NCBI GenBank assembly: GCA_964503265.1
Contig: CAZCYO010000004.1
Location: forward strand, 162,157 to 226,156
Direction of reading: 5' to 3'
Source: an uncultured Gammaproteobacteria bacterium
Lineage (GTDB): Bacteria > Patescibacteriota > Microgenomatia > Levybacterales > UBA12049
DNA: 64,000 nucleotides
Positions 41,871-62,939 of the stretch are shown piece after piece. The position numbers and the translations under genes are program-made. Within the stretch, counting starts at the first letter, position 1. Each line of letters opens with the position of its first letter. The notes beneath the pieces were generated by a model that saw only the letters and a program-made list of their open reading frames with translations, was not told the DNA's origin and did no database searches.

Positions 41871-41975
41871 ACGAGCGTAAGAAAGTCAAAACCGGAGGCT
41901 AGAAGTAAATTATTGAATCACGAAGTATGAAAATTTATCTAATTAGATAGAATAATAAGCTTTCTTGATTCAAGC

Positions 41976-43529: not shown

Positions 43530-43554
43530 CACACCTCTAGCGAGGTAATTTCAA

Positions 43555-45021: not shown

Positions 45022-45084
45022 GTTCAAATGAACTGATGTAGGAGGAGATAGAAAGTATGCTAAGGCATGCTTCTGAGAGCAGGG

Positions 45085-47373: not shown

Positions 47374-47627
47374 ACAATATAATTTACAATTCCTAATTTC
47401 TAATTTCTAATCAATACAAGACACAGTAAACAGCTACAGGTAAATCATTTGAGTTTGATTAAAAATTTTACATGTTAAATTATAAATTCTGTCTTTATTC
47501 TACTCTACTCCCCATTATTTGACAAACGTTTGGCCAATTGAAAACAACCAACCAGGTAATCCCCCTCTTGCATTTTTGATTTATATAGTATAAACATAAT
47601 ATACATTACCAGGTTTATCTGATGAGC

Positions 47628-47655
47628 TTGACAAAGTCCTATAATATGCTATACT
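47628..47655 (+). promoter_or_regulatory. conserved promoter module copy (TTGACA-16-TATACT) driving the leader that contains element A and the SLH gene
   Basis: gcTTGACAaagtcctataatatgcTATACT. Confidence 0.55.
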
Positions 47656-47710
47656 CTGCTGACGTACGCTAAATCATTCTCTCCTCGTGAGGGATTTTTT
47701 TATCGCTACT

Positions 47711-47825
47711 GCACATTAACCCTCCTACGCTTAAAGCTACGGAAGGGTGAACATGCTAAAGTACCATTTTGCTAATAAGAAAGGGCTTGCCCTCTCGAAG
47801 CTTTAGCGAAGTGGGGCACATTAAC
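47711..47825 (+). repeat. element A of the gcacattRac-bounded repeat family (about 96-nt body between 10-nt direct repeats), in the 5' leader of the SLH gene
   Basis: gcacattaac at 47711..47720 and again at 47816..47825. Body is ccctcctacgc-[gcttaaagc hairpin]-tacggaagggt...gggcttgccctctcgaagctttagcgaagtgggg. Confidence 0.6.
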
Positions 47826-48034
47826 AAGAGAGAGTGTATTTTAGAAAAGAATAGTTTTCTAGGTACTACCTGCAGTGTTTCGAATCCACTTCGAGATAGC
47901 GCTGGTGGTGCCTGGAAAGGAGCTAGCAAAGAAAGGAGGAAACATTAGATACGACAAGTCGTCGCATCTTATTCCCTGCTTTCCACGCGCCACTAACTAA
48001 CGTCGTTACTGTATAAATTCGGAGGCGCCAAATT

Positions 48035-48667
48035 ATGTTTCGCCGATTCGCACCCCTAGCGCTCGCGTTGATCCTCACCCTGGGTACTGTTACATCCGCA
48101 CTCGCGGGTGGCTTATACCCGGACGTGTCGGACAACGACAGCCGCATAGTGGCGATCCAGTGGATCACCTCTATGGGAGCCATGACTGGTTACACCGACA
48201 AGCGGTTTGGCGTTAATGACAACGTCACCCGCGGGGAGATGGCAAAAATCCTCGGGGTTATCCTCGGCGTTCAGCCCCAAATCGGGGCTACGTGCTTCAA
48301 CGATATGGGATCCTACGATCCTACGCTGCGAGCGTACGCCTGTAAGCTGGCCCAAATGGGCCTACTGAAAGGCTATGCCGACGGCCGATTCGGGCCAAAC
48401 GATCCAATCTCGCTAACGCAGATGATATCACTCATCGTGAGGGCGAAAGTCGCCTCTGGCGACTGGGTAGCCGTCACGACGGATGATCCCTCGATCTACC
48501 CGAACGTAACGACCATGAGTACCAGGCTCGAGATACTGACGTATCTCGAGCATCAGATTCAGGTGCCCAAGTCGCCCAATGTCCACGGGAATCTGAATGG
48601 AGCGTACGCACCGGTGACTCGCGGCGATGCCGCTTGGTACTTAATGCTTAGCTTCTACAAGACGTAA
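48035..48667 (+). CDS. secreted protein with S-layer-homology (SLH) domains; first gene of the high-GC mosaic region
   Basis: Signal peptide ALALILTLGTVTSALA. SLH-like segments GYTDKRFGVNDNVTRGEMAKIL and GYADGRFGPNDPISLTQMISLIVRA. G+C far above the window background. Confidence 0.6.
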   Translation: MFRRFAPLALALILTLGTVTSALAGGLYPDVSDNDSRIVAIQWITSMGAMTGYTDKRFGVNDNVTRGEMAKILGVILGVQPQIGATCFNDMGSYDPTLRAYACKLAQMGLLKGYADGRFGPNDPISLTQMISLIVRAKVASGDWVAVTTDDPSIYPNVTTMSTRLEILTYLEHQIQVPKSPNVHGNLNGAYAPVTRGDAAWYLMLSFYKT

Positions 48668-48678
48668 GTTCACGGCTA

Positions 48679-48722
48679 GTCCGCCACATAGTGGGGCCTA
48701 CCGGCTCTACTGTGTGGCGGAC
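48679..48722 (+). terminator. long terminator-like hairpin after the SLH gene
   Basis: gtccgccacatagtgg / ctactgtgtggcggac forms a roughly 15-bp stem 12 nt after the stop codon, followed by a C/T-rich tract. Confidence 0.5.
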
Positions 48723-48902
48723 AACGCCACTTTCTTCTCTAAATACAGATTTTTAATACCTTTCTATGAACGAGTAATAATTGCATTACTCCCTTCAAAC
48801 AAAAACTAAATAAAATCGAGTTACTCCTCTCTCTTGTTATAATTTTCCTCATTTGACATCACTTCTCCTCTTTTCTATGCTTATTCTAGGTAGTATTTTC
48901 TT

Positions 48903-48932
48903 CTTGACAAAGTCTTATAGGAGATACTATAC
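48903..48932 (+). promoter_or_regulatory. conserved promoter module copy (TTGACA-18-TATACT)
   Basis: tcTTGACAaagtcttataggagatacTATACT. Confidence 0.55.
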
Positions 48933-49024
48933 TGCCGCTACGTTTTATTATCACTGAATATCTTCATTGCTTGATATATCCGTGACATAAAACAGCATCG
49001 TTACCACCAGCTCAAGCTAAATAA

Positions 49025-49093
49025 GGTTTACCCCTAACGTAGCTTTAGCCCCGATTGAATCGGGGTTAGCGAAGTGGGGCTCTTTAACAAGGC
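49025..49093 (+). repeat. element B, a 3'-half copy of the same family carrying an inserted 16-nt palindrome
   Basis: ggtttacccctaacgtagctttagc[cccgattgaatcggggttagc]gaagtggggctctttaacaaggc. Compare the 3' half of C. Confidence 0.5.
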
Positions 49094-50131
49094 ACACAGA
49101 TTGATATTTTTTGTTTTCGAGAGGAAAACGAGAAAAGGATGACATATTCCCCGTCAGCTAGTAGCTTACAAAGTTGTGTAAATTACTAGCTGATTTGTGG
49201 GAGTATACGATTTGGCGTGATCGTCTACGATCCCAGATCAGTAGAGACTGTCCCCAGCCTCTTCTCCATCCATCCTTCCTCCTCATTTCCTCCTCTATCC
49301 GGGAAGCAGGGAACCCAACCCTGCTTCCCCCCCCTTCTCTTTTGAGAAGATTTACGGCTTAGGAGGTGCCACACTCCGAAAGCTTCAAAAGTAATTTCAT
49401 TACTTTTCCAAGTGTATAAAGGCACTTGTTATTCATATCTGGCTTCTTGCTAGATATGGTGTGTGGGCAGGTGGTTCCCGACACCTGCCCCACTCTTTTC
49501 TGCCATCTTCTTCTCGCCCCGGCGTGGTTTTTACCAAAGCCGGGACGAGATTATACATACTGAGGACCTTCTCATCACTCTATCCATTAGACTCGCACCG
49601 CGGGTCAGGATGGCGGGTTACGACCCGTTACGATGAGAAGTCCTCAGAAGGCCCGGATTCGTCCGAACGATCCCCGGGGGAGTTTTTTCCCCGGAGATTA
49701 GCCTGTTTCAGCTTTCGGAGACAATATCGTCACCGGAGCTGGACTTGTATCTAGCAGGAACTTCTCGCATCACGAGAAACGCACCGGCATAGTAGCCGGT
49801 ACTTTCTCACGTGAGTGAGACCTGCACCTATCTGACGTCGTCAGGAATCCTGGGGTCGGCCTTCTGGCCGACCCCACAATCTCTTACGAGAAGCGAAAGA
49901 AAAAAACGATCTATCATCTGTGTGCCTTACTTTTTTATAACCCCACGCTTCAATTACCGCCTATTTCCCGAATTACGGCCATTATTTGGTACGTTTTCCC
50001 CGACTCGGAGATTTTCATCATAGTCGGTCAGCTATAGCTTTTCTTCTGGTATTCCGTAACGCTCCCCGCCTCGATCATCTTTACTATATAGAAATTTACT
50101 CGTCTCACCACAAGAGCAGAAACCGGACGAC

Positions 50132-50160
50132 TTGACAAAACTATAGGACTGTGATATGCT
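50132..50160 (+). promoter_or_regulatory. conserved promoter module copy (TTGACA-17-TATGCT)
   Basis: cTTGACAaaactataggactgtgaTATGCT. Confidence 0.45.
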
Positions 50161-50464
50161 TCATTTCTAGTTGTGGTTTGGGATATGTGTTGGAGTATCA
50201 GATAACCCTCACGACTTTATAACAGTAAAACGCCCAACATATATCCCCCGACCGTAACAGGCGGGTTTTTTTGTACCTTTTTGCATTTGCGCAGAAAGAA
50301 AACAAATAACTCGGAGCACTTTAACAAGGCAACGGATAAAAAATTAATTGATACTTCTTTACTAAAAGGAGTTCCTGATGCGTACTGTCCACAATATGAT
50401 GGTGCGCGCCAGGAGCTCCTGAATGTGAGGGAGCTAGACAGAAAACTCTTGAAAGGAGTTACTC

Positions 50465-50704
50465 GTGAAAAACATACTCTCAGTTCTCCACTTCATCGCT
50501 GCATTTCTTGCGGTGATCGCAGTGTCGGGAACAATATTCCTCATACTCTTTGGTATTCATGTAGAAGTCCATATTGTCTGCTTTACCGCAGGAATATCAG
50601 GGCTATTCGCTTTCACGATCACGCTTCTCTATGTAGTGTTCGCACTGCCATCTGGAAACCTGGTGTCATCGGAAGTTCCGACCGCGCCTGATAACTCCCG
50701 GTAG
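50465..50704 (+). CDS. small two-TM membrane protein (high-GC)
   Basis: GAAAGGAG upstream. A GTG at about 50462 may be the true start. Two hydrophobic helices. Confidence 0.35.
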   Translation: MKNILSVLHFIAAFLAVIAVSGTIFLILFGIHVEVHIVCFTAGISGLFAFTITLLYVVFALPSGNLVSSEVPTAPDNSR

Positions 50705-50733
50705 TTAGAGCCGCACAGAAAGGATAGAGACAC

Positions 50734-51195
50734 ATGCCACATCCAACATCGAGGCCAACAAGCAGGTTCGCGCTCGTCGCGAGCGTGTTTGCCTTAGTCG
50801 CGAGTATCTCAGTCTTCATCTTTTCCTTCAACGCTAACACAGCCGCGAAGGAGGAATATAACCGCGTCGCAGCACATGCCACGGAGGTCTCCTCTCGGCT
50901 GTTTGAAAACCGCATTAGCGGTAATCTGACTAAGGGGGTGCTCCTCCAGTACTGTGCTATCAGCTGTGATAGCGCCGACTTTACGGAGATCACAGTAGAT
51001 GGCTTCACCGTCGTCAAGTACACGCCTCCCTTTCGGGGAGCATGTGCGCAGATCAGGCGAAGCGGATACATTATCACAGCGCCCTCAATTTCGGTTGAGA
51101 GTCGAGATATGTATCCCCTCAATGAACCACAAATCGCTTACTGCGGGACGTGGTTCTTCGGAGCCAAATTTCCGGAACAGCCAGTACGCAAGTAG
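50734..51195 (+). CDS. membrane-anchored Cys-containing extracytoplasmic protein (high-GC)
   Basis: RBS AAAGGA. N-terminal TM ALVASVFALVASISVFIF. Confidence 0.4.
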   Translation: MPHPTSRPTSRFALVASVFALVASISVFIFSFNANTAAKEEYNRVAAHATEVSSRLFENRISGNLTKGVLLQYCAISCDSADFTEITVDGFTVVKYTPPFRGACAQIRRSGYIITAPSISVESRDMYPLNEPQIAYCGTWFFGAKFPEQPVRK

Positions 51196-51273
51196 CGATA
51201 CTGCTGTTTTCACCCTCTCTAGAGACCCGCGTGGGGGATCTACCGACACACTATCTCTATTCTAGGAGGTCAC

Positions 51274-51483
51274 ATGCAACCATCCGCACAACAAAAACCT
51301 ACTCCCGCAGTGACTGCGGGTAGGATCGCCGAGACGGCGATCCAGACCTGCGCCATACATGGCATTCAAATGCAACCCATAAGGGGTTGGTGGAATGCCA
51401 CTAAGCGTGAGTATGTCAGCGGTGATGTGTGCCCGGAGTGCGAGAAGAGCGAAGGCATCTACACGCCAAAGCTCGTCCAGTAA
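51274..51483 (+). CDS. small Cys-containing protein (possible zinc ribbon, CAIHG...CPEC)
   Basis: RBS TAGGAGG 5 nt before ATG; high-GC. Confidence 0.35.
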   Translation: MQPSAQQKPTPAVTAGRIAETAIQTCAIHGIQMQPIRGWWNATKREYVSGDVCPECEKSEGIYTPKLVQ

Positions 51484-52100
51484 CCCTCAGGAGGCAACAT
51501 GCTATTTCTTGCACTGACGACAGACCCAGAGTATATCCCGATTGATTCGGGAGAAACTCTCGTGTACGCCCTTGGTGTCCTCTTGGTTTGCTGGCTCTTT
51601 TACGAGATCGGCCACTACCGCCGTTAGCATACGGTGGGATGAAGGCTCGTTCTGGTTAACATATCCGTTGCCTTCATCTCTTATTAGTACAATACTGTAA
51701 CGATAAGAGATGAAGTTTTTATGAGAAATAGCTATGATTTCTTCTTCAATTGCGAAGAATGGAAGACTAGTTATTTCATTGCACATTTACAAGGCAACCT
51801 TATACGTATAACTAACTCTCTTCAGATACAAAAAGAGGGCTCATATATGCCGCTTTTACTGTTCTCGGGAAACCAGCAGTACTCCAAAAGCGGCAGGTAT
51901 GAGTCCTCAGAAATGGTCTGGGGAAAAGAAGAAAGGATACCTTCGTGTTCGTGCCGTTTGACCTGATTTCATCGAACTCAGGCACGGATTCTCAAGTGTA
52001 TCTCCTCGTGCTCGCTGCACTAGGAGCATATCTGACAATCGAAGACATCATTCGGAATTGGCGCAAGTAGCGCTAAGAAGACATCTCTACAAGGAGGCAC

Positions 52101-52576
52101 ATGACCACAAAGCAGATGCTCATCATCGCGGCCGTGATCGGTACGCCGATCGGGCTCTGGCTGATCTTCGCGATCATCATCTTCGATGTGTTGACGAAAA
52201 AAGCCCTGAAAGGGTTTGAATTCGTCATCCGACACGCGATGGGCGGCCACTAGCCGTTAGAAAGGAGCATACTATGCCCGACACTGTGAGCATCCTACTC
52301 ACGATCGCGATCGCAGCCATCATCATCGTGGCAATTTGTTTGTTTCGATCTGAAGATGTGAGTAATACCTCACACATCAGCGGCGCTGAGAAGCGCTAAA
52401 GAAAGGAGCGACCCATGTTCGCACGAATCTGGCTGTGGCTCGCACTCGCCCTCGGCCTCGATGACGGCGTGATCTACTCGGATCCTGGGGTGAATTTGGG
52501 CTACGGCTCAATCAACCCCACTCCTGTCAAGTGGAGCGACTCACTTCGTGAGCTGCTCGACGACGGAAAAATCTAG
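52101..52576 (+). other. array of three consecutive small hydrophobic-peptide ORFs (52101..52253, 52274..52399, 52415..52576; 50, 41 and 53 aa), each with its own AAGGAG(G) RBS
   Basis: Each ORF has a strong SD at -6 to -9, one predicted TM helix, high G+C and tight spacing. Confidence 0.35.
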
Positions 52577-52837
52577 CCTTCCTTTCTTCACCATGTTATA
52601 CCTAACTCATTTTCCAACACCCTTTTCCCTAAGACCGAGGCATTTTCGCTTCGTTTCACTGCAGTTTTCTGTAGCGATTTCTTCCGGATTGGGGGGATGG
52701 CAGATGTTTCAGGTTGCCTTACCCCCTATGGCGAGAAATCATTCTCGATATAGGGGGTGAATTTATTAGATTAGAATTGTTTTCTTACTTCTTCAATTGC
52801 GAAGAAAAAGAAAACGGTTATTTCGCACATTAACCCT

Positions 52838-52967
52838 CCTACGCATAAATTCTAAACAGAATTTAGCTACGGAAGGGCAAGACAGTACGCCATTAAGCTA
52901 CTTCTTTGATAGGTTTACCCCTAACGAAGCTTAAGCGAAGTGAGGCACATTAACAAAGCATACGAAT
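52838..52967 (+). repeat. element C, a full copy with an extended hairpin (taaattct-aaac-agaattta)
   Basis: gcacattaac at 52838..52847 and 52958..52967. Upstream conserved hairpin cttcttcaattgcgaagaa at 52790..52808. Confidence 0.6.
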
Positions 52968-53106
52968 ACAGATTTCAGCGCGAGGAGAGGATATCTATCA
53001 CCTCTTTCCGCTGAAATCTGAAAAAATCAGATGAACGATCACTTCGTGAAAGGACTGCCTATGGCTGACTGATCTACTGTCGGATTGTTTAGATAAGGAG
53101 GTTCAC

Positions 53107-53682
53107 GTGTCTTCTCGAAAGGCTCACGCACTCTTTGCTATACTTCTGCTCCTGATCGCATTCATGCCAAGTCCGGCCGCAGCGAGCAACGATGCTCAAT
53201 TCGGTCGGCCGATCGTCGCTCCACAAATCTTGTGGCGCGAAGCGCAGCTCACAACCTGCGCGAACGTCTCTTCGGCGACACCGACATGTATCGTCATCGA
53301 CCTCATGGTCGATAACGATGGCAGCCACATTCAAGAGTTCTCGCTTACCCGCGAGGACGCTCGGAAGAATCGCCGGGCGATCCAAGTTTCGGTGTCTGAG
53401 GACACTAAAGGACTTCGGATCACGGACACCAGCGCGACATTTTCTCGCACCATCAACGCAAAAAATGCCGTGGACGGCAAGGAGATCAAGATCAAAGTCG
53501 ATCTCACCTGGCGTCAGTCAGGACCAGAACGCCCCTTCGAAGGGCCACAGATTCCTGAAGAACCCCGCTTCTTGCGTCAAGCACGCGTGAGCGGGACAAT
53601 CCAGATCGGATCTGAAAAACCGATCACCGTCTCAAGCAACGCTGGCGTTCTCATCCGGTGCATCGCGACACCGGCACAATAG
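53107..53682 (+). CDS. secreted hypothetical protein (GTG start, high-GC)
   Basis: RBS AAGGAGG. Signal peptide ALFAILLLLIAFMPSPAAAS. Confidence 0.45.
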   Translation: MSSRKAHALFAILLLLIAFMPSPAAASNDAQFGRPIVAPQILWREAQLTTCANVSSATPTCIVIDLMVDNDGSHIQEFSLTREDARKNRRAIQVSVSEDTKGLRITDTSATFSRTINAKNAVDGKEIKIKVDLTWRQSGPERPFEGPQIPEEPRFLRQARVSGTIQIGSEKPITVSSNAGVLIRCIATPAQ

Positions 53683-53880
53683 CCTGAAGCTTCAGGTGCA
53701 GATACGATTTGTAAGACAGTGCTGTCTTATATGGGTCAATGACGACCCGTCGTATCTCACTTGTGAGGCCAAAAGGTACATATATTCGTATGCTTTCTGT
53801 CTTCCGATAACATCGGGACTGATGAGTTCTATTCACTGCAAATGCGTAGTGATGAGAACGAAACAGAATTTGATTTACTA

Positions 53881-53945
53881 TCCACTCAATAAACTCGAAG
53901 GGCTCGCCCCTCGAAGCTTTAGCGAAGTGGGGCACTTTGACAAGG
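53881..53945 (+). repeat. element D, a 3'-half copy
   Basis: tccactcaataaactcgaagggctcgcccctcgaagctttagcgaagtggggcactttgacaagg is nearly identical to the 3' half of E. Confidence 0.5.
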
Positions 53946-54086
53946 TATACAGGATTTAACATTCTTTCACGCAAGTGAAAGAGTTGTCTTATATTTTTTT
54001 AACGTGCCGCGAAGTAGGGAGAGGAATACTCCCCTCTCTCTTCTTCGCGGCACTGATAATTGATCGATACGCCTAAGGGGGTAAAG

Positions 54087-54476: not shown

Positions 54477-54591
54477 GGAGGCTAATACATGCCTACTGCG
54501 CGTTCACCCCCAGACGAGCGTATGATCCCGTTTCTTTTTCATCTCCCGGCGAGTGCCGGGAGCTCTGAGAGAGAATATCAAGAGAGGTCCG

Positions 54592-55767
54592 ATGGACAAA
54601 ATCTCATGGATTCTCATGATCTTCGGTGTGATCCTCGCGATCATGGTCGTTCCCTACGCCAGGAGGCGTTCGGAACGCAGTCACGAAATGCGTGACCGCA
54701 TCATGCGGTCAACATTGATCCTCGGGATTGCCATCATGGGCGCCCAGGGTCTCGCATTCATTCACCCGGCTTCAGCCGGGGCAGAGCCCTACTATCCGAC
54801 ACAGGTTCACACCTTCGTTCGGAGCGAGGCGCTCCCGCAAAGCTTCAGCTTCACGCCTAATGGCGTGCAAGACTGTGGTTGCGGCGGACTCGCCTCGCTG
54901 AACATGCCACAAGGAAATGTGGCACTAAGCGAACAAGGTCTTCCTTTGGCAACTCGCTACGGCGGGGTACTCACAGTCGTGTTCGGCGAGTCGACCAAAT
55001 TCCGGGTTTCAAGCCCGGATGCCGAGTTGACAATGCAGGTGGACGGGAAACCGTTCGCCAAGACGTTCTATCTCACAGAGATCGGAAAAACCTTGACCCT
55101 GGACATCAAACCAGGTGACAAGGTTGACCGCCTCATGGTGGAGCTCAAGTCGAGCTTCCCCATGGTGAACATTTACGCTGATGAGGCACCCATCCCTGGC
55201 AGCATCTATTTCCCGCAGACCCGGCATAACATCGCCAAGGTATTCCAGTCTTACTGGGAGAACCATGGCGGCGTGAGCGTGAACGGCATGGCCGTCACCA
55301 CGAGTGGGTACGAGCGAAACGGTCCAAATATCTACCTGGTGCAATACTTCGAGCGCGTCCGCCTGGAGTACCACCCGGAGAACACTGAGGAAAAGTACAA
55401 GATCTTGCTCGGCCAGTTCGGCGTCGTGATTCACGGTGGAATCGATCCACCTATTGCGAAGCCTACTCCGAGCCAATACGACGACAGTATCCGGTACTTC
55501 CCTGAGACTGGGCACACCGTCGCGGGACGCTTCCTAACATACTGGAATACCCAAGGCGGGTTGAGCCAGTTCGGCTACCCGATCACCCAGGAATTCTACG
55601 AGCGCCTCGATGACGGGGTATCGCACACCGTGCAATACTTCGAACGCGGGCGCATGGAATTCCACAGCGAGAACAGGGAGCCCTATATGGTGCTGCTCGG
55701 CCAATTCGGCCGGCAGATGGCCGCTATCACAGCGGCTGATCGCGACAGCACCAGCACCCACCGCTAG
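54592..55767 (+). CDS. membrane-anchored extracytoplasmic protein with tandem ~45-aa repeats (F..YW...GG....GYP...EF.ER......HTVQYFERGR.E.H.EN.....LLGQFG)
   Basis: TM near the N-terminus. At least two copies of the repeat, which is shared with 61085..61903; high-GC. The ORF track starts earlier, at 54553. Confidence 0.5.
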   Translation: MDKISWILMIFGVILAIMVVPYARRRSERSHEMRDRIMRSTLILGIAIMGAQGLAFIHPASAGAEPYYPTQVHTFVRSEALPQSFSFTPNGVQDCGCGGLASLNMPQGNVALSEQGLPLATRYGGVLTVVFGESTKFRVSSPDAELTMQVDGKPFAKTFYLTEIGKTLTLDIKPGDKVDRLMVELKSSFPMVNIYADEAPIPGSIYFPQTRHNIAKVFQSYWENHGGVSVNGMAVTTSGYERNGPNIYLVQYFERVRLEYHPENTEEKYKILLGQFGVVIHGGIDPPIAKPTPSQYDDSIRYFPETGHTVAGRFLTYWNTQGGLSQFGYPITQEFYERLDDGVSHTVQYFERGRMEFHSENREPYMVLLGQFGRQMAAITAADRDSTSTHR

Positions 55768-55874
55768 TCGACTGTGATTACTGATAGCATGGTACCCAGG
55801 ATTCACCTGGAGGGAGCTTAGCTCCCCCATGCTCGATGGTCATTGAACTTTTCTTTCTACAAGGAGGGTAACCA

Positions 55875-56168
55875 ATGTCCACGATCGATCTCATCAATAC
55901 CCGCTGGGACGCATACACTCCCAGCACTGAGGAGCCTCCTCGCCCGCTGAACCTTCGATGGTTCTGGCGAACGCTTCTCGCCGTCCTGGATGGCATTATC
56001 GTCATGCGGGACTGCCTCAGCCTCGGGCTGAGCATGCTGATCGTTTTCTTGGAATGGACACACGTCCTAACCAAAGGAAAACGTCGGATCGTGCCTACAA
56101 TCGGCGGGATCTGGATCATGGTGGCCATCACGGTCACCATTCTCGATCACATGTTCTACCCTCGATAA
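55875..56168 (+). CDS. small polytopic membrane protein (high-GC)
   Basis: RBS AAGGAGGG. Three hydrophobic helices. Confidence 0.4.
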   Translation: MSTIDLINTRWDAYTPSTEEPPRPLNLRWFWRTLLAVLDGIIVMRDCLSLGLSMLIVFLEWTHVLTKGKRRIVPTIGGIWIMVAITVTILDHMFYPR

Positions 56169-56619
56169 GACAACGAACCCACGCGAGCCACCCCGCTCAC
56201 ACCCATACTACGGCCTCTGCGCTGTGGAACATGTGCGTGAGCTGACGTAACCCGCCGAGTGTGGATCAAGTAACTGAAAGGAGATTTGGAATCGATATCT
56301 ATCGATTACCGTCTCCCGCCAGAGACTTCCAAATCCCCTCCTGTATACCTTGATCCATACCTTCTCAATAGTATAATTTTTAATTTGAAATTCGAAATGT
56401 TAAATCACTGTTTAAAAATTCAATTTAGTAATACATTTAGATTTGATTAAAAATTTAACATAGTAAATCTACAATTAAAGCAAGCTATAGGCTTATTATG
56501 GCGTGTCCCTTTATTTTTCGTAATAAGTCTATCAATACTAATATCACTACTTCTTATCTGCTTTGTTTTCAGCCTTTTTTACTCTTCAGTAGCATATAAA
56601 AGTACTCTTGCAATTACTA

Positions 56620-56649
56620 TTGACAAAGTCTTATAAGATATGCTATACT
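56620..56649 (+). promoter_or_regulatory. conserved promoter module copy (TTGACA-18-TATACT) 7 nt before the ATG of 56657, predicting a leaderless transcript
   Basis: atTGACAaagtcttataagatatgcTATACTcccatttATG. Confidence 0.55.
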
Positions 56650-56656
56650 CCCATTT

Positions 56657-57349
56657 ATGTTAACAACAAAAAACATTTTACTCGCTACAGGCCTTACTCT
56701 TGGTCTTCTTTCTATGTCTACAACAGCATTTGCTGATTATGGCAATTGCCAAACAACCTATGGTCAATACGGTGGACAAAACTGTAATCCATCAATTAAT
56801 CTGTCAATTGATAAGAAAGTACAAAATCCTTCAGACAATTCATTCGTCGATAACTTAGGCGCAAACGAGACGAAGTACAATGCGTCATCTCCTATTACCT
56901 TTCAGATTAAAGTTACCAATACTGGAACAATCGCTGCTACAAACGTCGTTGTAAAAGACACGCTCCCAGCAACTGTTGATTATGTATCTGGACCTGGATC
57001 TTTCGATACTAACAGTAAAGTATTCTCATATACTCTCGGACAGATTAATCCTAATGAAACGAAAGTGTTTACTATTACTGCAAAAACTCCAAGTGAAGAT
57101 AAATTTGCTTCAAACCCAACCTGCATGACTAACACTGCAACTGTGACTGGTAACAGTGCAAACACTGCGACAGATACAGCTCAATTCTGTGTCCAAAAAG
57201 GAAATCCTACCACGAAAGGTGGAACTCCTGTCTATCCAGCACCTACTGTTAAAAACACACCATCAACTGGACCTGAAATGCTCCCACTGATCGGACTTAT
57301 CGGAAGTGGCTTTATCGGCTCACTTCTTCGAAAACGAACGAGTAAATAA
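56657..57349 (+). CDS. secreted DUF11/CARDB-like surface protein with PSTGPE sorting-signal-like C-terminus (paralog of 43555..44295), low-GC host-type gene embedded in the mosaic region
   Basis: Signal peptide. VVVKDTLPATVDYVSGPG motif. C-terminus KNTPSTGPEMLPLIGLIGSGFIGSLLRKRTSK. The same promoter module as 43555 lies upstream. Confidence 0.65.
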   Translation: MLTTKNILLATGLTLGLLSMSTTAFADYGNCQTTYGQYGGQNCNPSINLSIDKKVQNPSDNSFVDNLGANETKYNASSPITFQIKVTNTGTIAATNVVVKDTLPATVDYVSGPGSFDTNSKVFSYTLGQINPNETKVFTITAKTPSEDKFASNPTCMTNTATVTGNSANTATDTAQFCVQKGNPTTKGGTPVYPAPTVKNTPSTGPEMLPLIGLIGSGFIGSLLRKRTSK

Positions 57350-57379
57350 GCACGTATATTGCCAAAACGACTCGTTCAC

Positions 57380-57403
57380 ATCCTGCGAAAGCAGGATTTT
57401 TTG
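57380..57403 (+). terminator. intrinsic terminator after the DUF11 gene
   Basis: atcctgc-gaaa-gcaggat hairpin followed by TTTTTTG, about 30 nt after the stop. Confidence 0.75.
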
Positions 57404-57519
57404 TATAAAGAGAGAAAAGATCAAACATTGCAAAGCATTACCTTTTCAAATAGGAAAATAAAGGACTCATTTATCATAAAAAATGGAGTAAATTTATAGC
57501 TATGAAGGAGCCGTGAGAC

Positions 57520-57548
57520 TTGACAAATCCTATAGGATATGATATAGT
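57520..57548 (+). promoter_or_regulatory. conserved promoter module copy (TTGACA-17-TATAGT), immediately upstream of a MITE
   Basis: cTTGACAaatcctataggatatgaTATAGT. Confidence 0.45.
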
Positions 57549-57585
57549 TCAGGCACATTCGCACGTTTTAATAAAAATATCTAAC

Positions 57586-57673
57586 GTGTCATCCTCGACC
57601 TGATCGAGGATCTATTAGATAACTCCTTATAAAGGAAATCTCTAATAGATTCCCGTTTTCACGGGAATGACAA
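57586..57673 (+). mobile_element. MITE-like element with GTCAT termini and three hairpins (non-autonomous relative of the GIY-YIG element)
   Basis: tgtcatcctcgacctgatcgaggatc...ctattaga-[loop]-tctaatag...gattcccgttttcacgggaatgaca. Terminal inverted repeats of about 12 nt. Confidence 0.6.
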
Positions 57674-58048
57674 ATTATGTTTACGACCAGAGATAAGACA
57701 AGACTCATCCTCTTCTCTTTTCTCCGAGCGTAAGCCCCGATTAAATCGGGGTAAGCCCGGAATACGAATAGATCGTTCTTTTCTCAATTGCGAGATCAGA
57801 ATATATATATCCGTAGTTCTTTGACAAGGTACGCAATTTTTTAGAAACGCTAATAACTAGTTTGAGAAAGCTTAGAGTTAGATACTGCACGCTCTTCTGA
57901 GGGCGTGCGATACCTAACTCTAAGGTGGTTCGGATAGTGAAATTCATCAGAATTTCTTTTTCTATCCAGCCACCTCTCAAACAACTCTCACGGAGCAGTA
58001 ATGCTTCGTGTCGTCGGATATATTCTTCTCACATCTGAAGGAGGTGCT

Positions 58049-58441
58049 ATGTCCTGGAAAGGTCGATTGGTAGCTTTGCTCCTCGGAGCAGGGTTACTCT
58101 GTCTGGCCCTCTGGGGCCAACCCTCCGACAGGGCGGGTCCCACTCGGGAACCGCCGTTGAGGAGAGTCTCTGATCGTCGTCAACAACAATTCAAGGAGGA
58201 CACATCGATGGATAAGAAGCCCGCACTCAACTGGCTGACCATCGTTCTCGCGATCGTGAGTGCCCTCGGCACTCTGATCTTCGTTCCGCTCGTCATCGTC
58301 CTGATGATGCTCACGGATCAGGCCACCGTCACGGTGGCTATGTTCGTCGGCCTCGTCTACGTGTCGATCATCGCGCACATCGCGCTGCTCTTCGCCATCG
58401 GCTTCCGCAAGAAGTCGGAGGTGGTTAGCCGCGTTCCGTAG
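58049..58441 (+). CDS. small membrane protein (high-GC); may be two cistrons, a signal-peptide peptide and a two-TM protein starting at 58208
   Basis: RBS GAAGGAGG before 58049 and CAAGGAGG before the internal ATG at 58208. Confidence 0.35.
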   Translation: MSWKGRLVALLLGAGLLCLALWGQPSDRAGPTREPPLRRVSDRRQQQFKEDTSMDKKPALNWLTIVLAIVSALGTLIFVPLVIVLMMLTDQATVTVAMFVGLVYVSIIAHIALLFAIGFRKKSEVVSRVP

Positions 58442-58490
58442 TTCCAGTGCACAGTTCGTGCACTATGATACTCACAGGAGGAACACTAGA

Positions 58491-59294
58491 ATGAATGCCC
58501 GACGCCGACCGTTCGCGATCTTCGCCGCCATGTTGGCGGTGTTGGTCTTGCTCGCAGGATGCTCGTTCGGCACCGCGACGCCGACCCCCTCGGGGGCCGC
58601 GCCCGCAGCCACAACGGATCCCACCGCACCCGCGGCGACGACCGTCCCGGTCACGCCAAGCTCCGCGCCCAGCGCGGCGCCGACGTTGACCCCGTATCCG
58701 ACCCAGGTTCCGTTGCCAACCCAGGCACCGCTACCGACACTCACCCCCTACCCCACGCAGGCACCGCCCGCGGCGGCCATCGCGCCGACCGCAACCGCGG
58801 TTCCCTCGCAACCGGGTGGGACTAAGCCATCTGCCGCTCCGGCGGTCAAGACCCTCCCCGAGGGTGTCACCGACCTAGGCAATGGTGTCGGGTGCGTTGA
58901 CCCGAAGGTCGTCGCCAAGATCATCAACCGCTATCACGCGGCTGGTAACGATCCCGGTCCGGCGGCCCGCGAACTCGACACGCTGTTCGACCAGAGCGCC
59001 TCGCAAGGGGTGTTCATTGGTCAGCATGCTGCCGACGTCAACTTCACCTTCCGCCCGGCCCCCCAAGAAGGTGGTTCGGGCAGCATCGTCTTCTGGCACA
59101 ACGCCCTCAATGGCGGGCCCAACAAGCTCGACACCGGGCCGAACGCCAAGATGATGGGACTGTTCCTGCAAGGCACCTACGGGATCTACGGCGCGTGGGA
59201 TACCCACGTGAAGCTCGTCAACAATGACGGGCGGTCCGCGTGGACCTGCAGCTACCTGAATCCCGAGCAGATGCTGGATTACTGGGGCAAGTAG
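58491..59294 (+). CDS. lipoprotein with long Pro/Ala/Thr-rich linker (very high G+C, roughly 70-78% in places)
   Basis: RBS CAGGAGG. Lipobox LLAGCS. PT/PA-rich low-complexity region typical of proteins from high-GC Gram-positive or Chloroflexi-like donors. Confidence 0.5.
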   Translation: MNARRRPFAIFAAMLAVLVLLAGCSFGTATPTPSGAAPAATTDPTAPAATTVPVTPSSAPSAAPTLTPYPTQVPLPTQAPLPTLTPYPTQAPPAAAIAPTATAVPSQPGGTKPSAAPAVKTLPEGVTDLGNGVGCVDPKVVAKIINRYHAAGNDPGPAARELDTLFDQSASQGVFIGQHAADVNFTFRPAPQEGGSGSIVFWHNALNGGPNKLDTGPNAKMMGLFLQGTYGIYGAWDTHVKLVNNDGRSAWTCSYLNPEQMLDYWGK

Positions 59295-59337
59295 CCCCTT
59301 TCAGCATCGCGTTTCTATCACCCGCGTACCCTAGTCA

Positions 59338-59368
59338 TCGGGGTCGGCGATTAATTTCGCCGACCCCA
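59338..59368 (+). terminator. terminator-like GC hairpin after the lipoprotein gene
   Basis: ggggtcggcg-attaattt-cgccgacccc has a perfect 10-bp stem and no U-tract. A similar stem ggggtcggcc-ttct-ggccgacccc occurs at 49849..49872. Confidence 0.4.
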
Positions 59369-59419
59369 GTTCCCTTGTAGAGAAGCATTTGTTTCTCTCC
59401 AGAGGTACTGTCTATTTTC

Positions 59420-59548
59420 ACTGTCATTCTGGATTTACCTGTCATCCTCGACTCGATCGAGGATCTATATGATACATCCTATAAGGAACTATCCAAAAGA
59501 TTCTCGTTTTCACGAGAATGACAAATCTAAGAATCAGGATGACAAATA
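59420..59548 (+). mobile_element. nested or composite MITE of the same family
   Basis: Outer termini ctgtcattctgga...atcaggatgacaa enclose inner tgtcatcctcgactcgatcgaggatc...ttctcgttttcacgagaatgacaa. Confidence 0.5.
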
Positions 59549-59563
59549 TTTAGAAAGGAGCAT

Positions 59564-59809
59564 ATGAATACTAATAACAACATCGTTTTAATCGCAGGAA
59601 GTTTCGTAGTCGCAGTGATAATCGCAGCGTTTACATTCTCTTCTGTAAATAAAAGTGAAGCTAAGCAGCAAGCAGTAACATCTTGTATGCAGGTTGCACA
59701 AGTACAGTCACAAACAGCTAAAACAGCTGATGACACTGTCTATACGACCACGTACAAACTTCCTATCGAGGAATGGTACAAGCGTTGTATGAAAGAAAAA
59801 GGATATTAA
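59564..59809 (+). CDS. small secreted/membrane protein (low-GC, host-like)
   Basis: RBS GAAAGGAG. N-terminal hydrophobic helix. Confidence 0.4.
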   Translation: MNTNNNIVLIAGSFVVAVIIAAFTFSSVNKSEAKQQAVTSCMQVAQVQSQTAKTADDTVYTTTYKLPIEEWYKRCMKEKGY

Positions 59810-59993
59810 TAGACGGAAAGCGTAAGGGATTTTTCCTTTTCGCTTTCCGATCTGTCCGCTGCCCCCGCGACATGCTCGGAGAAGAAAGCATGAAATACCT
59901 TTTTTCAGCTCTCTTCCCCAAGCGTTTATTCGCCAGGGGATTTTTTTTGTCTAAGCCTATGCATTTGCGCAAAGGCAGAAGACATAAAAAATC

Positions 59994-60123
59994 GCACATT
60001 GACCCTCCTTCGCATAAATTCTAAAAAGAATTTAGCTACGGAAGGGTAAATGTAATTTAGTACCCACTCAATAAACTCGAAGGGCTCGCCCCTCGAAGCT
60101 TTAGCGAAGTGGGGCACATTGAC
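59994..60123 (+). repeat. element E, a full copy whose two bounding repeats both read gcacattGac (co-varying with each other)
   Basis: gcacattgac at 59994..60003 and 60114..60123. Hairpin taaattct-aaaa-agaattta. Confidence 0.6.
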
Positions 60124-60194
60124 AGTACGAGAGATTAATTTTTAAAAACTCCAATAAGAGTTTATGGACCTCTCCGTTGTGGATATAACTAACA

Positions 60195-60260
60195 CATTGT
60201 CATTCCGGCTTGTCCGGAATCAGATTCTGGTAAAGCTTTCACTTTTCCAGAATGACATGT
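60195..60260 (+). mobile_element. short variant MITE (acattgtcattccgg...ccagaatgacatgt) with two hairpins
   Basis: Terminal inverted repeat tgtcattc/gaatgaca. Internal hairpins cattccgg-cttgt-ccggaatc and attctgg...ccagaat. Confidence 0.45.
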
Positions 60261-60287
60261 TATTTCTACTACGGAGAGGAGTTCTCC

Positions 60288-60512
60288 ATGAACTTCACGG
60301 AGGGTACAGCCATCAACGGCTCGAACCTTTCCCCGGAAATCCGGGATCACGGCCGCCGAATAGGCACGTACTGGGCTGCGCTGATTCTCAAAGATCTGTG
60401 TGTGCGAGGGCTCAATTGGGCCAACGCTCACCTCGATCCGAGGGATCAAGTGAAGCTCCAGATACCGTCCAGGCCGCAACCGCGCAAGCGGACGCGGCGG
60501 AAGACACCCTAG
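60288..60512 (+). CDS. small basic protein (high-GC)
   Basis: RBS GGAGAGGAG before the ATG at 60288. The ORF track extends to 60252. Confidence 0.3.
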   Translation: MNFTEGTAINGSNLSPEIRDHGRRIGTYWAALILKDLCVRGLNWANAHLDPRDQVKLQIPSRPQPRKRTRRKTP

Positions 60513-60578
60513 TCCAAGGATCCCAGGCAAGGGTCGGCCACTTGGCCGGCCCTCACTGCACATACGGAGGAGGCATCC

Positions 60579-60809
60579 ATGTTCGCACGCCTACGTGACC
60601 TGACACCGGAACAACGATACGACATTTTCCGCCTCGGTGGAATCGGCGTACTCGCCGGCATCATCGCGGTGCTCTCAGAAGTGCAGGCGATCTGGACCAC
60701 ACAACGTCCAGCCCGACCCGCACCCGAGCAACACCCGCTCGCGGCACGCACCGCTCCCACCGAATCGGTGGAACTAGCGCGCCAGGAAGTTCCGATCAAC
60801 GAAGCATAA
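60579..60809 (+). CDS. small membrane-associated protein (high-GC)
   Basis: RBS GGAGGAGG 6 nt upstream. Confidence 0.35.
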   Translation: MFARLRDLTPEQRYDIFRLGGIGVLAGIIAVLSEVQAIWTTQRPARPAPEQHPLAARTAPTESVELARQEVPINEA

Positions 60810-61084
60810 GGAGGACAGTAATGTCATCTATTCGCCCGCCTCCACTATTCCCGTTCAGGTTGAACGGGATGAAGGAAGAAAGAAGGAGAAAGCTATAATG
60901 CCAATCTTGATCGGAGTTGTCTCGCTCGCGACTGCGTACCGTGGTTGGTTGATCTACAAGCAACTGGAGCACACGCTCCCACGCTTGGCCAACCAGCTCA
61001 AGAAGCAGTTCGCCAAGTAGGTCTCTCCGCCACCTTAAAAGGCGGAATTGACTCATGTTCACACTCTACTCCAGGAGGAACACA

Positions 61085-61903
61085 ATGCGACGAATACTGA
61101 CTAGTCGGTTGTTAACAATCGTACTCACGATGTTGCTCACCCTGGGCGGCGTTGCCGTCCAGGGCCTCAACGCGCAAGCGCTGAGCAGCAACAACATCGC
61201 GACCGTCTCTGCTACGCTGAACATCGTCTTCCCGACTCGCCCTGACATCCAGGTGATCTCCAGCCTCTCCGAGGCTGAGTTCTCTGTGACGAAGGCTTCG
61301 CTCACCGCTCCCAGCGACTTCTGTTTCCCCGAAACGGGCAACTGTATCACTGGGCGCTTCGCCGAGTATTTCTGGGCCATGGGAGGCGTGCCGGTCTTCG
61401 GCTACCCCATCTCGGGGGAGTTCAAAGAGACTAGCGTCACCGATGGCAAGGATCATACCGTCCAGTACTTCCAGCGCAACTTGTTCGAGGCTCACGCCGA
61501 GAACGCGAAGCCGAACGACGTACTGAGCGCGCTCCTCGGTCTCGAGGAGTACAAGTCGCGATACTTCTTCGTCGACGTCAGCCGGATGCTCGAGTTGTAC
61601 TACGGGAAGTTCACCACATCCCCAAATGACATCGGGCCGTTCATCAAGGCGCTCGATGTCGAGTTCAACAGTCGCCTCGGCCACGCCGGGGAAGACATTC
61701 CAAACACCGGTGCTACCGTCAAGGCCGGCTCGGTGTTCTGGACGAACACGGGTGGCAAGCCGATCGGCGGCAGCTACACTGCACTCGCGCAGAACGGCAC
61801 GGTCATCGTGGGTTATGCCCACACCGACGTCTTCGTTCCCACTGGGGGACGCTGGCTTCGCATCTACGGGTTCTTTGACCCGCGGATGATGATCGACAAG
61901 TAG
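61085..61903 (+). CDS. secreted protein carrying the same F..YW..GG..FGYPI...HTVQYF.R repeat as 54592..55767
   Basis: RBS CCAGGAGG. Signal peptide LLTIVLTMLLTLGGVAVQGLNAQA. Repeat CITGRFAEYFWAMGGVPVFGYPISGEFKE...HTVQYFQRNLFEAHAEN...LLG. Confidence 0.5.
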   Translation: MRRILTSRLLTIVLTMLLTLGGVAVQGLNAQALSSNNIATVSATLNIVFPTRPDIQVISSLSEAEFSVTKASLTAPSDFCFPETGNCITGRFAEYFWAMGGVPVFGYPISGEFKETSVTDGKDHTVQYFQRNLFEAHAENAKPNDVLSALLGLEEYKSRYFFVDVSRMLELYYGKFTTSPNDIGPFIKALDVEFNSRLGHAGEDIPNTGATVKAGSVFWTNTGGKPIGGSYTALAQNGTVIVGYAHTDVFVPTGGRWLRIYGFFDPRMMIDK

Positions 61904-62004
61904 TCGGCACAATCTCTCGTCACTGTCTGGACCGGTCCGTCACCTGACGGATCGGTCCCAGACCTAGTGTGAAGAAACAGTTTTCTTCATAGTAGATCTG
62001 TTGA

Positions 62005-62933: not shown

Positions 62934-62939
62934 TATCTA

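Follow-up and report, generated by a model that had tools for sequence, protein, structure and literature searches.

Why does the AT-rich genome of a Microgenomatia bacterium carry a run of GC-rich genes whose translation start signals differ from those of their neighbours? We address this question in a 64,000-nt stretch of contig CAZCYO010000004.1 (assembly GCA_964503265.1, positions 162,157 to 226,156), hereafter the window, in which a mosaic island at 48.0–61.9 kb interrupts a low-GC core (1–47 kb and 62–64 kb). The island lies between a TraD/VirD4-type ATPase gene and DUF11 and glycosyltransferase genes, and it is hypervariable and conserved across the lineage. We tentatively read it, at a little short of an even chance, as a hypervariable island whose units are exchanged from a foreign, GC-rich gene pool.

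A GC-rich mosaic in an AT-rich background

Background G+C (GC) content is 0.38–0.47 per kb across the window (about 0.42). Between 48.0 and 61.9 kb, 200-nt windows alternate between GC-rich blocks (0.48–0.63) and AT-rich spacers (0.25–0.45), with a peak of 0.70–0.75 confined to 58.5–58.9 kb. This sliding-window profile confirms the mosaic of GC-rich blocks in an AT-rich background that a first-pass annotation had described as 55–78% GC by eye; the alternation is as described there, but the figures were somewhat overstated. The blocks that it listed are also present, although two of them start elsewhere (near 50600 and 52000 rather than at 50230 and 52080). Most are gene blocks, as it proposed, except for 49100–50060, which is non-coding and lacks codon periodicity.

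The excess of GC in coding DNA sits largely at third codon positions (GC3). Values of 0.50–0.82 in plus-strand block open reading frames (ORFs) compare with 0.25–0.43 in 22 native genes, while GC1 and GC2 barely differ between the two sets, and the reading frames of the block ORFs are backed by phase-specific GC. Elevated GC also reaches the untranslated flanks around ORFs, covering ~60–130 nt of leader and 3′ hairpin, and it extends to the non-coding hairpin block at 49100–50060. Measured by GC-normalised dinucleotide signature, the island lies at a distance of 121 from its own core, compared with 46 between one core half and the other. Distances from the window island to the islands of other genomes are 52–107 (all island pairs, 52–136), and the distance to an unrelated genome of 70% GC is 78.

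Island and native genes differ further in how translation starts are marked. A match of at least 5 nt to AAGGAGG, placed 5–9 nt from the start, was found for ~17 of 21 island ORFs and for none of the 22 native genes, a stronger contrast than the first-pass annotation had reported. Several native genes have TATAAT or TATACT 5–8 nt before the ATG, which points to a predominantly leaderless mode of translation for the native genes of this organism. Native genes with such a box include LeuRS at 4634, ORFs at 11684 and 38181, and the DUF11 gene at 56657, where TATACT ends 7 nt before the ATG. The sister loci described below repeat the contrast, with AAGGAGG-type sites in GC-rich genes and none in AT-rich genes. 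The foreign-type composition and translation signals of the blocks are borne out by GC3, by start signals and by dinucleotide distance.

Support for the structure

Two contigs of the Logan assembly of SRR12487046 correspond to window positions 35881–53911 and 53906–60093, and three contigs of the ENA assembly ERZ4216102 to positions 47699–49073, 52568–56293 and 56335–59818. Over the assembled parts, these contigs are 99.97–100% identical to the window and cross several boundaries between low-GC and high-GC DNA. Apparent indels in the ENA contigs are runs of N plus a single deletion of 153 nt, flanked by two similar repeats, that may reflect a collapse; these contigs therefore represent the same strain and are perhaps not independent data. 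An interpretation of the ENA contigs as strain variants (87% identical protein, indels) was discarded for the same reason. The mosaic is genuine and not an assembly chimera, because other assemblies span its junctions and because relatives from other projects carry a GC-rich block there; the comparative evidence is the stronger of the two arguments. The first-pass annotation had likewise argued against a simple chimera, and both the assemblies that cross GC boundaries and the like junctions in sister genomes of other projects uphold it.

The same locus in related genomes

Scanning one genome per species with the ATPase returned nine Patescibacteria loci, in which its homologues are 49–65% identical. 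Loci and contigs of relatives are given here by handle (L006 and so on). In L008 and L012, the gene order is Rho, DUF11, ATPase, a 348–350-aa homologue of a 391-aa membrane-anchored protein of the window island, DUF11, glycosyltransferases and GIY-YIG. Of this order, the L006 locus contains just the part to the right, from the 391-aa homologue on, and it lacks both Rho and the ATPase gene. Homologues of the 391-aa protein in L006, L008 and L012 have a GC3 of 0.60–0.66 amid genes at 0.20–0.43, and a further family member in L021 has 55–65% GC between flanks of 24–40%. Overall, the 391-aa gene has a syntenic orthologue in at least five low-GC genomes, including L006, L008, L012 and L021.

Content at this site is otherwise highly variable. 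Directly upstream of the ATPase gene, L013, L015 and L017 carry 2–2.5 kb of 58–67% GC (GC3, 0.75–0.85) in genomes of 37–44% GC overall, and these GC-rich genes are unrelated to the window island genes and to each other. For example, the TraD-like proteins of L013 and L017 are 79% identical, yet unrelated GC-rich genes occupy the same site. Most window blocks are absent from L008 and L012, with the 391-aa family being common to them. An association between the TraD/VirD4-type gene and a GC-rich block was seen in at least six genomes, and further examples of GC-rich blocks are L021, L026, L028 and L031. The comparison with sister genomes that the first-pass annotation had suggested therefore agrees with its idea of a hotspot, since content differs between relatives at a fixed site (L008, L012, L013, L015 and L017). 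The island is a property of a Microgenomatia clade and is not specific to the source genome.

The nine loci come from records titled Candidatus Microgenomates, Chisholmbacteria, Paceibacterota or 'Patescibacteria group', with four titled Gammaproteobacteria or Lysobacterales. These four bins (L012, L013, L015 and L017) are nevertheless syntenic with Patescibacteria and are probably mislabelled. On L026, a contig from another metagenome, at least 9.5 kb (1–9500) at 53–61% GC follow one copy of a spacer repeat, the gcacattRac element described below; this stretch holds many small co-oriented ORFs that match neither Pfam nor PHROGs.

Blocks diverge as units and stay GC-rich

When the 391-aa gene of the window was compared with those of L006, L008 and L012 at four-fold degenerate sites under identical amino acids, 33–37% of sites were identical, where saturation predicts 29–31%. 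The closer pair L008 and L012 shows where the divergence is concentrated. Nine AT-rich genes of these two loci encode proteins that are 80–98% identical, with 57–68% identity at four-fold sites, whereas two GC-rich genes encode proteins that are 73% and 41.5% identical, with 36–39% identity at four-fold sites. At the DNA level (150-nt windows), identity is 83–93% in nearly every AT-rich window, spacers included (one window, 81.6%), drops to 59–79.7% in GC-rich stretches and recovers at their ends. The substitution spectrum is ordinary, with a transition/transversion ratio of 1.20 in the blocks versus 1.62 outside and no diagnostic signature; an A–C over G–T strand asymmetry stands out in the blocks, but coding constraints could produce it. 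These comparisons show that each block changes as a unit, by divergence or by replacement, and at a much higher pace than the surrounding DNA.

Taken together, the syntenic GC-rich orthologues, the unit-wise divergence and the unrelated genes in sister genomes lead to a lineage-wide hypervariable island in which foreign-type genes are replaced as units.

Homologues and possible origin of island proteins

Database searches found no close donor. The 391-aa protein had 4,178 relatives, nearly all of which match its C-terminal repeat pair alone, at ~40–53% identity. Named relatives of this repeat domain belong to Thermomicrobiales and Chloroflexia (~47–53% identical), and many carry the Pfam LGFP repeat; in a plasmid collection, matches were limited to Chlorohelix and Thermomicrobium replicons. 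Five full-length relatives (P0002, P0003, P0016, P0085 and P0089) share its N-terminal domain. The protein consists of a family-specific N-terminal domain and two Chloroflexota-type LGFP-like repeats, and its best match outside the sister genomes is ~50% identical over the repeat domain only. A neighbour-joining tree (no bootstrap) places the 391-aa family in a single clade separate from Chloroflexota and pairs L008 with L012 as nearest neighbours. An AlphaFold2 model of the protein (7-sequence alignment; predicted local distance difference test score, 72) had no match in the PDB better than E 0.2 by Foldseek.

For the other proteins, relatives were scarcer still. An SLH-domain protein of the island found no relative but itself, and a 267-aa lipoprotein had one partial relative in a word-based search and 11 distant ones when 1.84 billion representatives were searched exhaustively. 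Viral contigs and phage records contained no match to the 391-aa protein, the 267-aa protein or the gcacattRac repeat. The tie to Chloroflexota, as judged from these alignments, is one at the level of domains only. Accordingly, the Chloroflexi-like donor suggested by the first-pass annotation keeps a domain-level link to Chloroflexota but finds no close donor among taxonomic best matches.

Two published systems bear on this link. A 2026 preprint (10.64898/2026.06.21.733656) reports that the Microgenomatia strain first brought into culture (~41% GC) lives as an ectoparasite on a filament of Chloroflexota (~65% GC). It also notes pili of a type IV secretion-like kind where the two partners meet, host RNA that is taken up by the parasite, and codon usage that is 'complementary' to that of the host. 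For TM7x and Actinomyces, the best-studied pair of this kind, the authors saw no strong sign of host-derived genes (PMC7427843). Because of the Microgenomatia–Chloroflexota pair in the preprint, a Chloroflexota-linked gene pool and a role for the island in host interaction are plausible.

How the island may be maintained

The units of the island are blocks the size of a transcription unit, in which a leader at the 5′ end and a hairpin at the 3′ end enclose ORFs with ribosome-binding sites. AT-rich native spacers supply sigma-70-type promoters duplicated from DUF11 genes, two families of miniature inverted-repeat transposable element (MITE)-like repeats and a predicted hammerhead ribozyme. We suggest that the units would be exchanged by homologous recombination, for which the conserved spacers and the genes on either side would act as anchors. 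The gene pool would ultimately derive from bacteria with GC-rich genomes and ribosome-binding sites, of which Chloroflexota are the most plausible. Wherever a signal is readable (signal peptide, lipobox, membrane segment, SLH domain, PT linkers or LGFP-like repeats), the products look secreted, lipid-anchored or wall-binding, and they would serve in attachment to, or interaction with, the envelope of such a host.

Several observations weigh against this reading. No close homologue or donor was found for any island protein tested, in searches of 5.8–15 billion proteins, and no recombinase or uptake signal that would tie the blocks to a capture mechanism was identified. Every full-length member of the 391-aa family with readable context sits in low-GC flanks, and the single clade with L008 and L012 nearest looks like what vertical descent would produce. 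Despite saturation, four-fold GC of the 391-aa family stays at 0.59–0.77; simple acquisition followed by amelioration fails, because four-fold GC should have decayed by then. The ORFs of the L026 island do not all look secreted, and the function of the island proteins is predicted from signal peptides and domains only.

These points also reshape the proposal of the first-pass annotation. Its outline stands, namely foreign-type DNA at a hotspot that was later colonised by native repeats, but the acquisition is neither recent nor traceable to a donor nor genome-specific. Recent piecemeal uptake from an identifiable donor finds no support in an SLH protein without relatives, a 267-aa protein with 11 and a 391-aa protein matched at ~50% over its repeats; recency is contradicted by a 391-aa gene that is syntenic in at least five low-GC genomes and still GC-rich at synonymous saturation. 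The ComEC/ComEA uptake route that it proposed is not supported as stated; the link would be the presence of those genes and the island in one 64-kb window.

The most serious alternative is that the high GC arises and is maintained within the locus itself, through GC-biased gene conversion at a recombination hotspot or through local GC-biased hypermutation. In this scenario the genes would be lineage-specific and fast-evolving, with no external donor, and a possible agent would be error-prone or RNA-templated repair limited to the units. It would account for a donor that is absent from very large databases, for a family that resides in low-GC genomes only and whose tree fits vertical descent, and for GC-richness that outlasts synonymous saturation. 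It also sits well with synonymous and non-synonymous divergence being raised together exactly in the GC-rich blocks, with a GC-normalised dinucleotide signature common to the islands of different genomes and with a GC elevation that takes in non-coding flanks and the hairpin block. However, AT-rich spacers show neither raised GC nor excess divergence (in some, divergence proceeds at the ordinary rate of the genome), and a purely regional biased process is hard to accept because it should not have spared them. The effects of GC-biased conversion that are described in bacteria shift GC3 by a few points, not by 40. Neither ribosome-binding sites nor domain families typical of Chloroflexota are explained by mutational bias, the substitution spectrum of the blocks is unremarkable (1.20 versus 1.62) and the window contains no gene for a reverse transcriptase or special polymerase. 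On balance we consider an origin in place unlikely, although it deserves to be kept in view.

A second alternative, which we regard as improbable, is that the host-type 'dialect' of these genes is itself functional. Their translation would need material from a GC-rich host, such as tRNA, and expression would then be confined to cells on a host; or else the DNA or its products would reach the host, in the manner of T-DNA, through a type IV secretion apparatus with its coupling ATPase gene next to the island. The conserved association with a TraD/VirD4-type gene in at least six genomes, the host-type codon usage and start signals, and the pili, host RNA uptake and 'complementary' codon usage reported in the preprint (10.64898/2026.06.21.733656) all speak for it. 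Nevertheless, the locus yielded no sign of a relaxase, an origin of transfer or border repeats, and the products carry ordinary export signals. Codon selection alone is insufficient, because non-coding GC is raised, which such selection does not explain, and because synonymous divergence is raised, which it would not bring about.

More improbable still is an integrated mobile element with a composition of its own, such as a prophage remnant, an integrative or conjugative element or an integron-like cassette array. Small, co-oriented, repeat-separated ORFs of mostly unknown family, an island of at least 9.5 kb of such ORFs in L026 and a coupling-type ATPase at the border would all suit such an element. 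But the scanned ORFs include no integrase, capsid, terminase, relaxase or integron integrase, phage and viral collections gave no match, and the repeats have inverted ends and duplicated 10-mers like MITEs rather than attC structure. Moreover, the TraD-like gene is low in GC and conserved across the clade, and native genes in conserved synteny interrupt the island. Prophage and defence-island identities were both rejected on Pfam, PHROGs and PADLOC scans of the window and sister island proteins. Finally, an assembly or binning artefact that joined reads of a GC-rich organism to an AT-rich one is close to refuted: although the ENA contigs have only ~2× coverage and short-read contigs break at repeats, the same joins occur in three assemblies, the same type of join recurs at the same syntenic position in genomes of unrelated projects, and native promoters and repeats are interleaved with the blocks.

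Genes of the island

All island genes described here lie on the plus strand. The leftmost encodes a secreted SLH-domain protein of 210 aa (48035–48667; GC3, 0.70) with a GGAGG ribosome-binding site; Pfam recognises SLH in two stretches (E 3.4e-20, 72.2 bits against a threshold of 20.8). To its right, a run of ORFs of 79, 153, 69 and 42 aa (50465–51627) has ribosome-binding sites and a GC3 of 0.50–0.61, but codon periodicity is weak in this run and its coding status is less certain. Three small hydrophobic peptides of 50, 41 and 53 aa follow at 52101–52576, each with AAGGAG(G) and with a GC3 of 0.62–0.82, and then a secreted 191-aa protein of unknown family (53107–53682; GC3, 0.62; AAGGAGG).

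The operon at 54.1–56.2 kb encodes two small membrane peptides of 45 and 43 aa (54087–54369), the membrane-anchored 391-aa protein (54592–55767; GC3, 0.72) and a 97-aa membrane protein (55875–56168; GC3, 0.71) that is co-conserved with the 391-aa gene. Beyond it lies a conserved mid-island anchor, a low-GC DUF11 surface protein gene with a sortase-type C-terminus and a promoter module (56620–57349). The right-hand blocks encode a 77-aa membrane protein (58208–58441; AAGGAGG; the longest ORF begins at 58001) and the 267-aa lipoprotein (58491–59294), which has a PT/PA-rich linker and, at the C-terminus, a rare domain that ends in DYWGK; GC and GC3 of the latter are 0.66 and 0.80, measured on a longer ORF at 58458–59294. 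Small GC-rich ORFs of 86, 76 and 40 aa (60252–61020; ribosome-binding sites in two of three) precede a secreted 282-aa protein with one LGFP-like repeat (61055–61903; GC3, 0.81).

A low-GC 81-aa membrane protein with a ribosome-binding site is encoded at 59564–59809. Small low-GC membrane proteins of this kind, with ribosome-binding sites, lie by GC-rich blocks in three genomes (window, 59564–59809; L006, 12472–12717; L015, 6078–6305 and 6311–6778). By eye, those of the window, L006 and L015 are alike in a C-terminus of the form ...C(M/V)K(E/K)KGY.

An island-type gene also occurs to the left of the region delimited by the first-pass annotation. It encodes a 170-aa PT-linker lipoprotein (44509–45021, plus strand), has AAGGAGG before the ATG at 44509, is present as a 170-aa gene in the Logan contig and sits between a DUF11 gene (DUF11a) and the TraD-like gene. 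Its GC3 is intermediate (0.52, measured on the longer enclosing ORF 44413–45021), and it may be an older member of the island class.

Domain searches added little to this catalogue. Beyond SLH and DUF11, Pfam, PHROGs and PADLOC returned nothing for the island proteins of the window and sister loci, apart from weak SLH or endolysin-domain echoes in Pfam and PHROGs. The same three resources found no integrase, capsid, terminase, relaxase or defence-system domain in the island ORFs, in agreement with the first-pass annotation, which had listed integrase, capsid and terminase as missing. Pfam detected no transposase domain in the island ORFs scanned and no Phage_integrase among the scanned ORFs of 43.5–64 kb (the larger ones and a selection of small ones).

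Native genes of the window

The low-GC part of the window encodes ComEC, ComEA, LeuRS, Rho, an M23/LysM peptidase, DUF11 surface proteins and a DUF8128-TrwB-type ATPase; the ComEC and ComEA genes and the island thus co-occur within 64 kb. Those proteins that were looked up all fall on a single NCBI contig of 236,902 bp. The left anchor of the island is conserved and consists of the TraD/VirD4-type coupling ATPase gene (DUF8128 and TrwB_AAD_bind; 45085–47373, minus strand). Pfam assigns it TrwB_AAD_bind (39.6 bits; threshold, 20.5), TraG-D_C (22.9 bits; threshold, 22) and DUF87, and the gene itself is low in GC and found clade-wide. A Pfam scan of 37–64 kb revealed no relaxase or VirB-type genes adjoining it. 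A tRNA-Ala gene (40538–40613) lies 7 kb from the island, with conserved genes between the two, and the low-GC gene DUF11a occupies 43555–44295 behind a copy of the promoter module at 43500. A GT2 glycosyltransferase gene (62118–62933) forms the right border of the island together with a GIY-YIG unit. The positions that the first-pass annotation gave for the DUF11 gene (56657), the tRNA-Ala gene (7 kb to the left) and the TraD-like gene (left border) are all accurate. Elsewhere in the core, two giant repeat-rich ORFs of 3,998 and 3,387 aa (15351–37515 region) contain internal repeats of 60–300 nt, and a paralogous pair within 7573–13093 is 84% identical between 7825–8124 and 10455–10754.

Promoters, repeats and RNA structures in the spacers

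The first-pass annotation described the spacers as built of repeats that also occur in the core genome. This holds for a promoter module and for a 19-nt hairpin but not for the gcacattRac element, which within the window is confined to the island. More broadly, native promoters and mobile miniature repeats are what the spacers contain, as seen from the promoter copies, the MITE-like ends and the ends shared between GTCAT elements and a GIY-YIG unit.

The promoter module, TTGACAAGGTCCTATAGG...TATACT (TTGACAAAGTCYTATAGG...TATACT), occurs in four copies against 0.18 expected (pattern search; repeat family D20). Two of these drive low-GC DUF11 genes (43500–43532, plus strand, before the gene at 43555–44295; and 56620), and two precede the SLH block and a hairpin array. 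The copy at 47628–47660 (plus strand) reads into the SLH block with TTGACA-16-TATACT (11/12 matches), and that at 48904–48936 (plus strand) reads into the hairpin array.

The gcacattRac element is a unit of ~95–135 nt, represented in the window by three complete copies and by right halves. All lie on the plus strand between 47.7 and 60.1 kb, with none in 1–47 kb. Complete MITE-like copies at 47711–47825 and 52825–52954 each have two identical flanking 10-mers, GCACATTAAC, and the copy at 59994–60123 is flanked by GCACATTGAC. One right half (49040–49088) is interrupted by the 19-nt hairpin GCCCCGATTGAATCGGGGT, and another (53880–53941) is conserved in L006 together with a ribozyme. The ends are imperfect inverted repeats (CCTCCTACGCATAAAGCTACG against the reverse complement CGAAGCTTTAGCGAAGTGGG, 16/21 by inspection), and end-to-end pairing appears in two of five folds. 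Flanking 10-mers are identical within a copy in six of seven complete copies and differ between copies (five variants), a pattern expected of a target-site duplication, and the downstream flank GCACTTTGACAAGGYANACAGG is itself conserved. At 50316–50340 (plus strand), the leader motif GCACTTTAACAAGGCAAC occurs without the repeat and is a candidate unoccupied target site; this motif and its downstream flank are 77% identical to L006 94–214. Metagenome contigs contain ten further copies, four of which lead into GC-rich DNA (L023, L026, L028 and L031). Neither the window nor the loci of relatives yielded a transposase partner. On these features the element reads as a MITE that targets a conserved leader motif. 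An alternative identity as a TTGACA promoter with an activator site (CGAAG direct repeats 11 nt apart) was set aside, since the 14 copies have no conserved -10 box downstream. The L023 copy (1308–1329, minus strand) precedes a 16S rRNA gene (1860–3002, plus strand) by ~530 nt in divergent orientation, and the contig ends within that gene.

A second family centres on a 356-bp GIY-YIG unit (62938–63293, minus strand), which encloses a small GIY-YIG gene (62967–63245) and has TGTCAT...ATGACA ends with hairpins. Two gene-less derivatives, of 86 nt (57587–57672, with TGTCAT...ATGACA ends and two hairpins) and 84 nt (59440–59523, of the GTCAT family), align to both ends of this unit, and a short divergent GTCAT-type element lies at 60198–60257. 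The pattern suggests that the GIY-YIG unit may be a gene-carrying mobile element with miniature derivatives in the island spacers. A further GTCAT-type element occurs at L006 9817–9878.

The palindrome that the first-pass annotation had found identical to a copy in comEA proved to be the 19-nt hairpin, which at 49048–49066 in the island repeat matches 1563–1581 within the comEA coding region. Next to it, the non-coding array at 49100–50060 contains at least 12 perfect GC-rich hairpins by eye and has minimum free energy z-scores of -16.9 (plus strand) and -14.6 (minus strand). It has no homologue in the sister loci, and neither the array nor the repeats matched Rfam at gathering and E-value thresholds. 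Placed behind a strong promoter (48904), this array of about 1 kb might form one large structured RNA, or else terminator-like hairpins may have accumulated there.

In the leader of the 54.1–56.2 kb operon, positions 53794–53869 (plus strand) are predicted to form a type III hammerhead ribozyme. Scores against RF00008 are 32.3 bits in the window and 30.0 bits in L006 (697–775), both below the gathering score of 48.5 because of a long stem II insertion. The core is complete, with CUGANGA, GAAA and a GUC cleavage triplet; in L006 it reads CUGACGA, a change at what we take to be the variable position of the core. Between these two distinct sequences, on which the covariation rests, stem I changes from CCGAU/AUCGG to CCGGU/ACCGG, the distal part of stem II is wholly different in L006 yet paired, and a U-A pair in stem III becomes A-U. 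The intergenic region at 53797–54069 is 79% identical to L006, while the adjacent proteins are 47% identical. A second hammerhead-like pattern, in L026, turned out to be merely a ribosome-binding site and coding sequence.

Comparison with known systems

The island resembles genomic islands, which have been reported in Patescibacteria generally (PMC12455944), in its atypical composition and codon usage, its variable content at a fixed position and its share of unknown and surface genes. It differs in being richer in GC than the genome, in lacking an integrase and a tRNA insertion, in using another translation-initiation regime, in having no detectable donor and in keeping its composition across synonymous saturation in syntenic orthologues. 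Of the features by which horizontally acquired islands are recognised, atypical composition and variable presence were found, whereas closer donor homologues and a mobility gene or tRNA insertion were not.

Integron cassette arrays likewise consist of co-oriented, short, variable, unknown ORFs separated by repeat copies, but here there is no integrase or attC-type structure, repeats precede the ORFs, promoters are internal and native genes interrupt the series. Hypervariable surface loci of episymbionts, such as the PTD-repeat gene of Gracilibacterium (PMC6851277), and antigenic-variation loci share extreme local divergence of surface genes and a possible matching of host motifs. In the island, divergence and replacement affect whole genes rather than repeat number, and GC3 is shifted by 30–50 points. 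With Agrobacterium T-DNA there is only a resemblance, in that genes with the codon usage and start signals of a putative host lie next to a VirD4/TraD-type ATPase gene. Here, neither a relaxase nor border repeats nor any sign of transfer accompanies them, and the products have bacterial export signals.

Both families of spacer repeat are MITE-like in being short and multi-copy with inverted ends, gcacattRac with a duplicated 10-mer and the GTCAT elements with ends shared with the GIY-YIG element. They depart from typical MITEs in that gcacattRac has no known transposase partner, is always gene-oriented and sits in a conserved leader, and in that GIY-YIG is not a classical transposase. The predicted hammerhead matches RF00008 in its catalytic core and three stems, but it has a long stem II insertion and is located in the leader of a bacterial surface-protein operon. 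A limited search of the literature turned up no earlier account, for Patescibacteria, of hypervariable blocks of GC-rich genes that carry ribosome-binding sites.

Implications

Island genes that diverge 2–3 times faster than their neighbours, past saturation, and stay GC-rich in AT-rich genomes pose a sharp evolutionary problem. Their persistence points to continuous import from an unseen gene pool, to unusually strong biased conversion or to targeted mutagenesis. A broader possibility, which we consider doubtful, is that Microgenomatia actively maintain a class of genes in a second 'dialect' of GC-rich codons and ribosome-binding sites within AT-rich, leaderless genomes, so that the island would not be a by-product of gene transfer. 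This would operate either through GC-biased diversification limited to these units, at several times the genome rate, or through expression or delivery tied to the host; if the latter were true, the route would involve host-derived tRNA or other RNA, or delivery by the adjacent type IV secretion-type machinery.

The results also have practical consequences. Binning and decontamination tools would discard such blocks as contamination. The contrast in start signals, with native genes leaderless and island genes preceded by ribosome-binding sites, can serve as a marker when other genomes are searched for genes of this class. Bacteria of the candidate phyla radiation make up a large share of bacterial diversity and live on other cells, and how they recognise their hosts is mostly unknown. 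The first member of the class Microgenomatia to be cultured is a parasite of Chloroflexota, and the island offers a concrete set of candidate genes for host interaction, located next to a type IV secretion-type ATPase gene; their products are putatively secreted and wall-binding, and they evolve fast.

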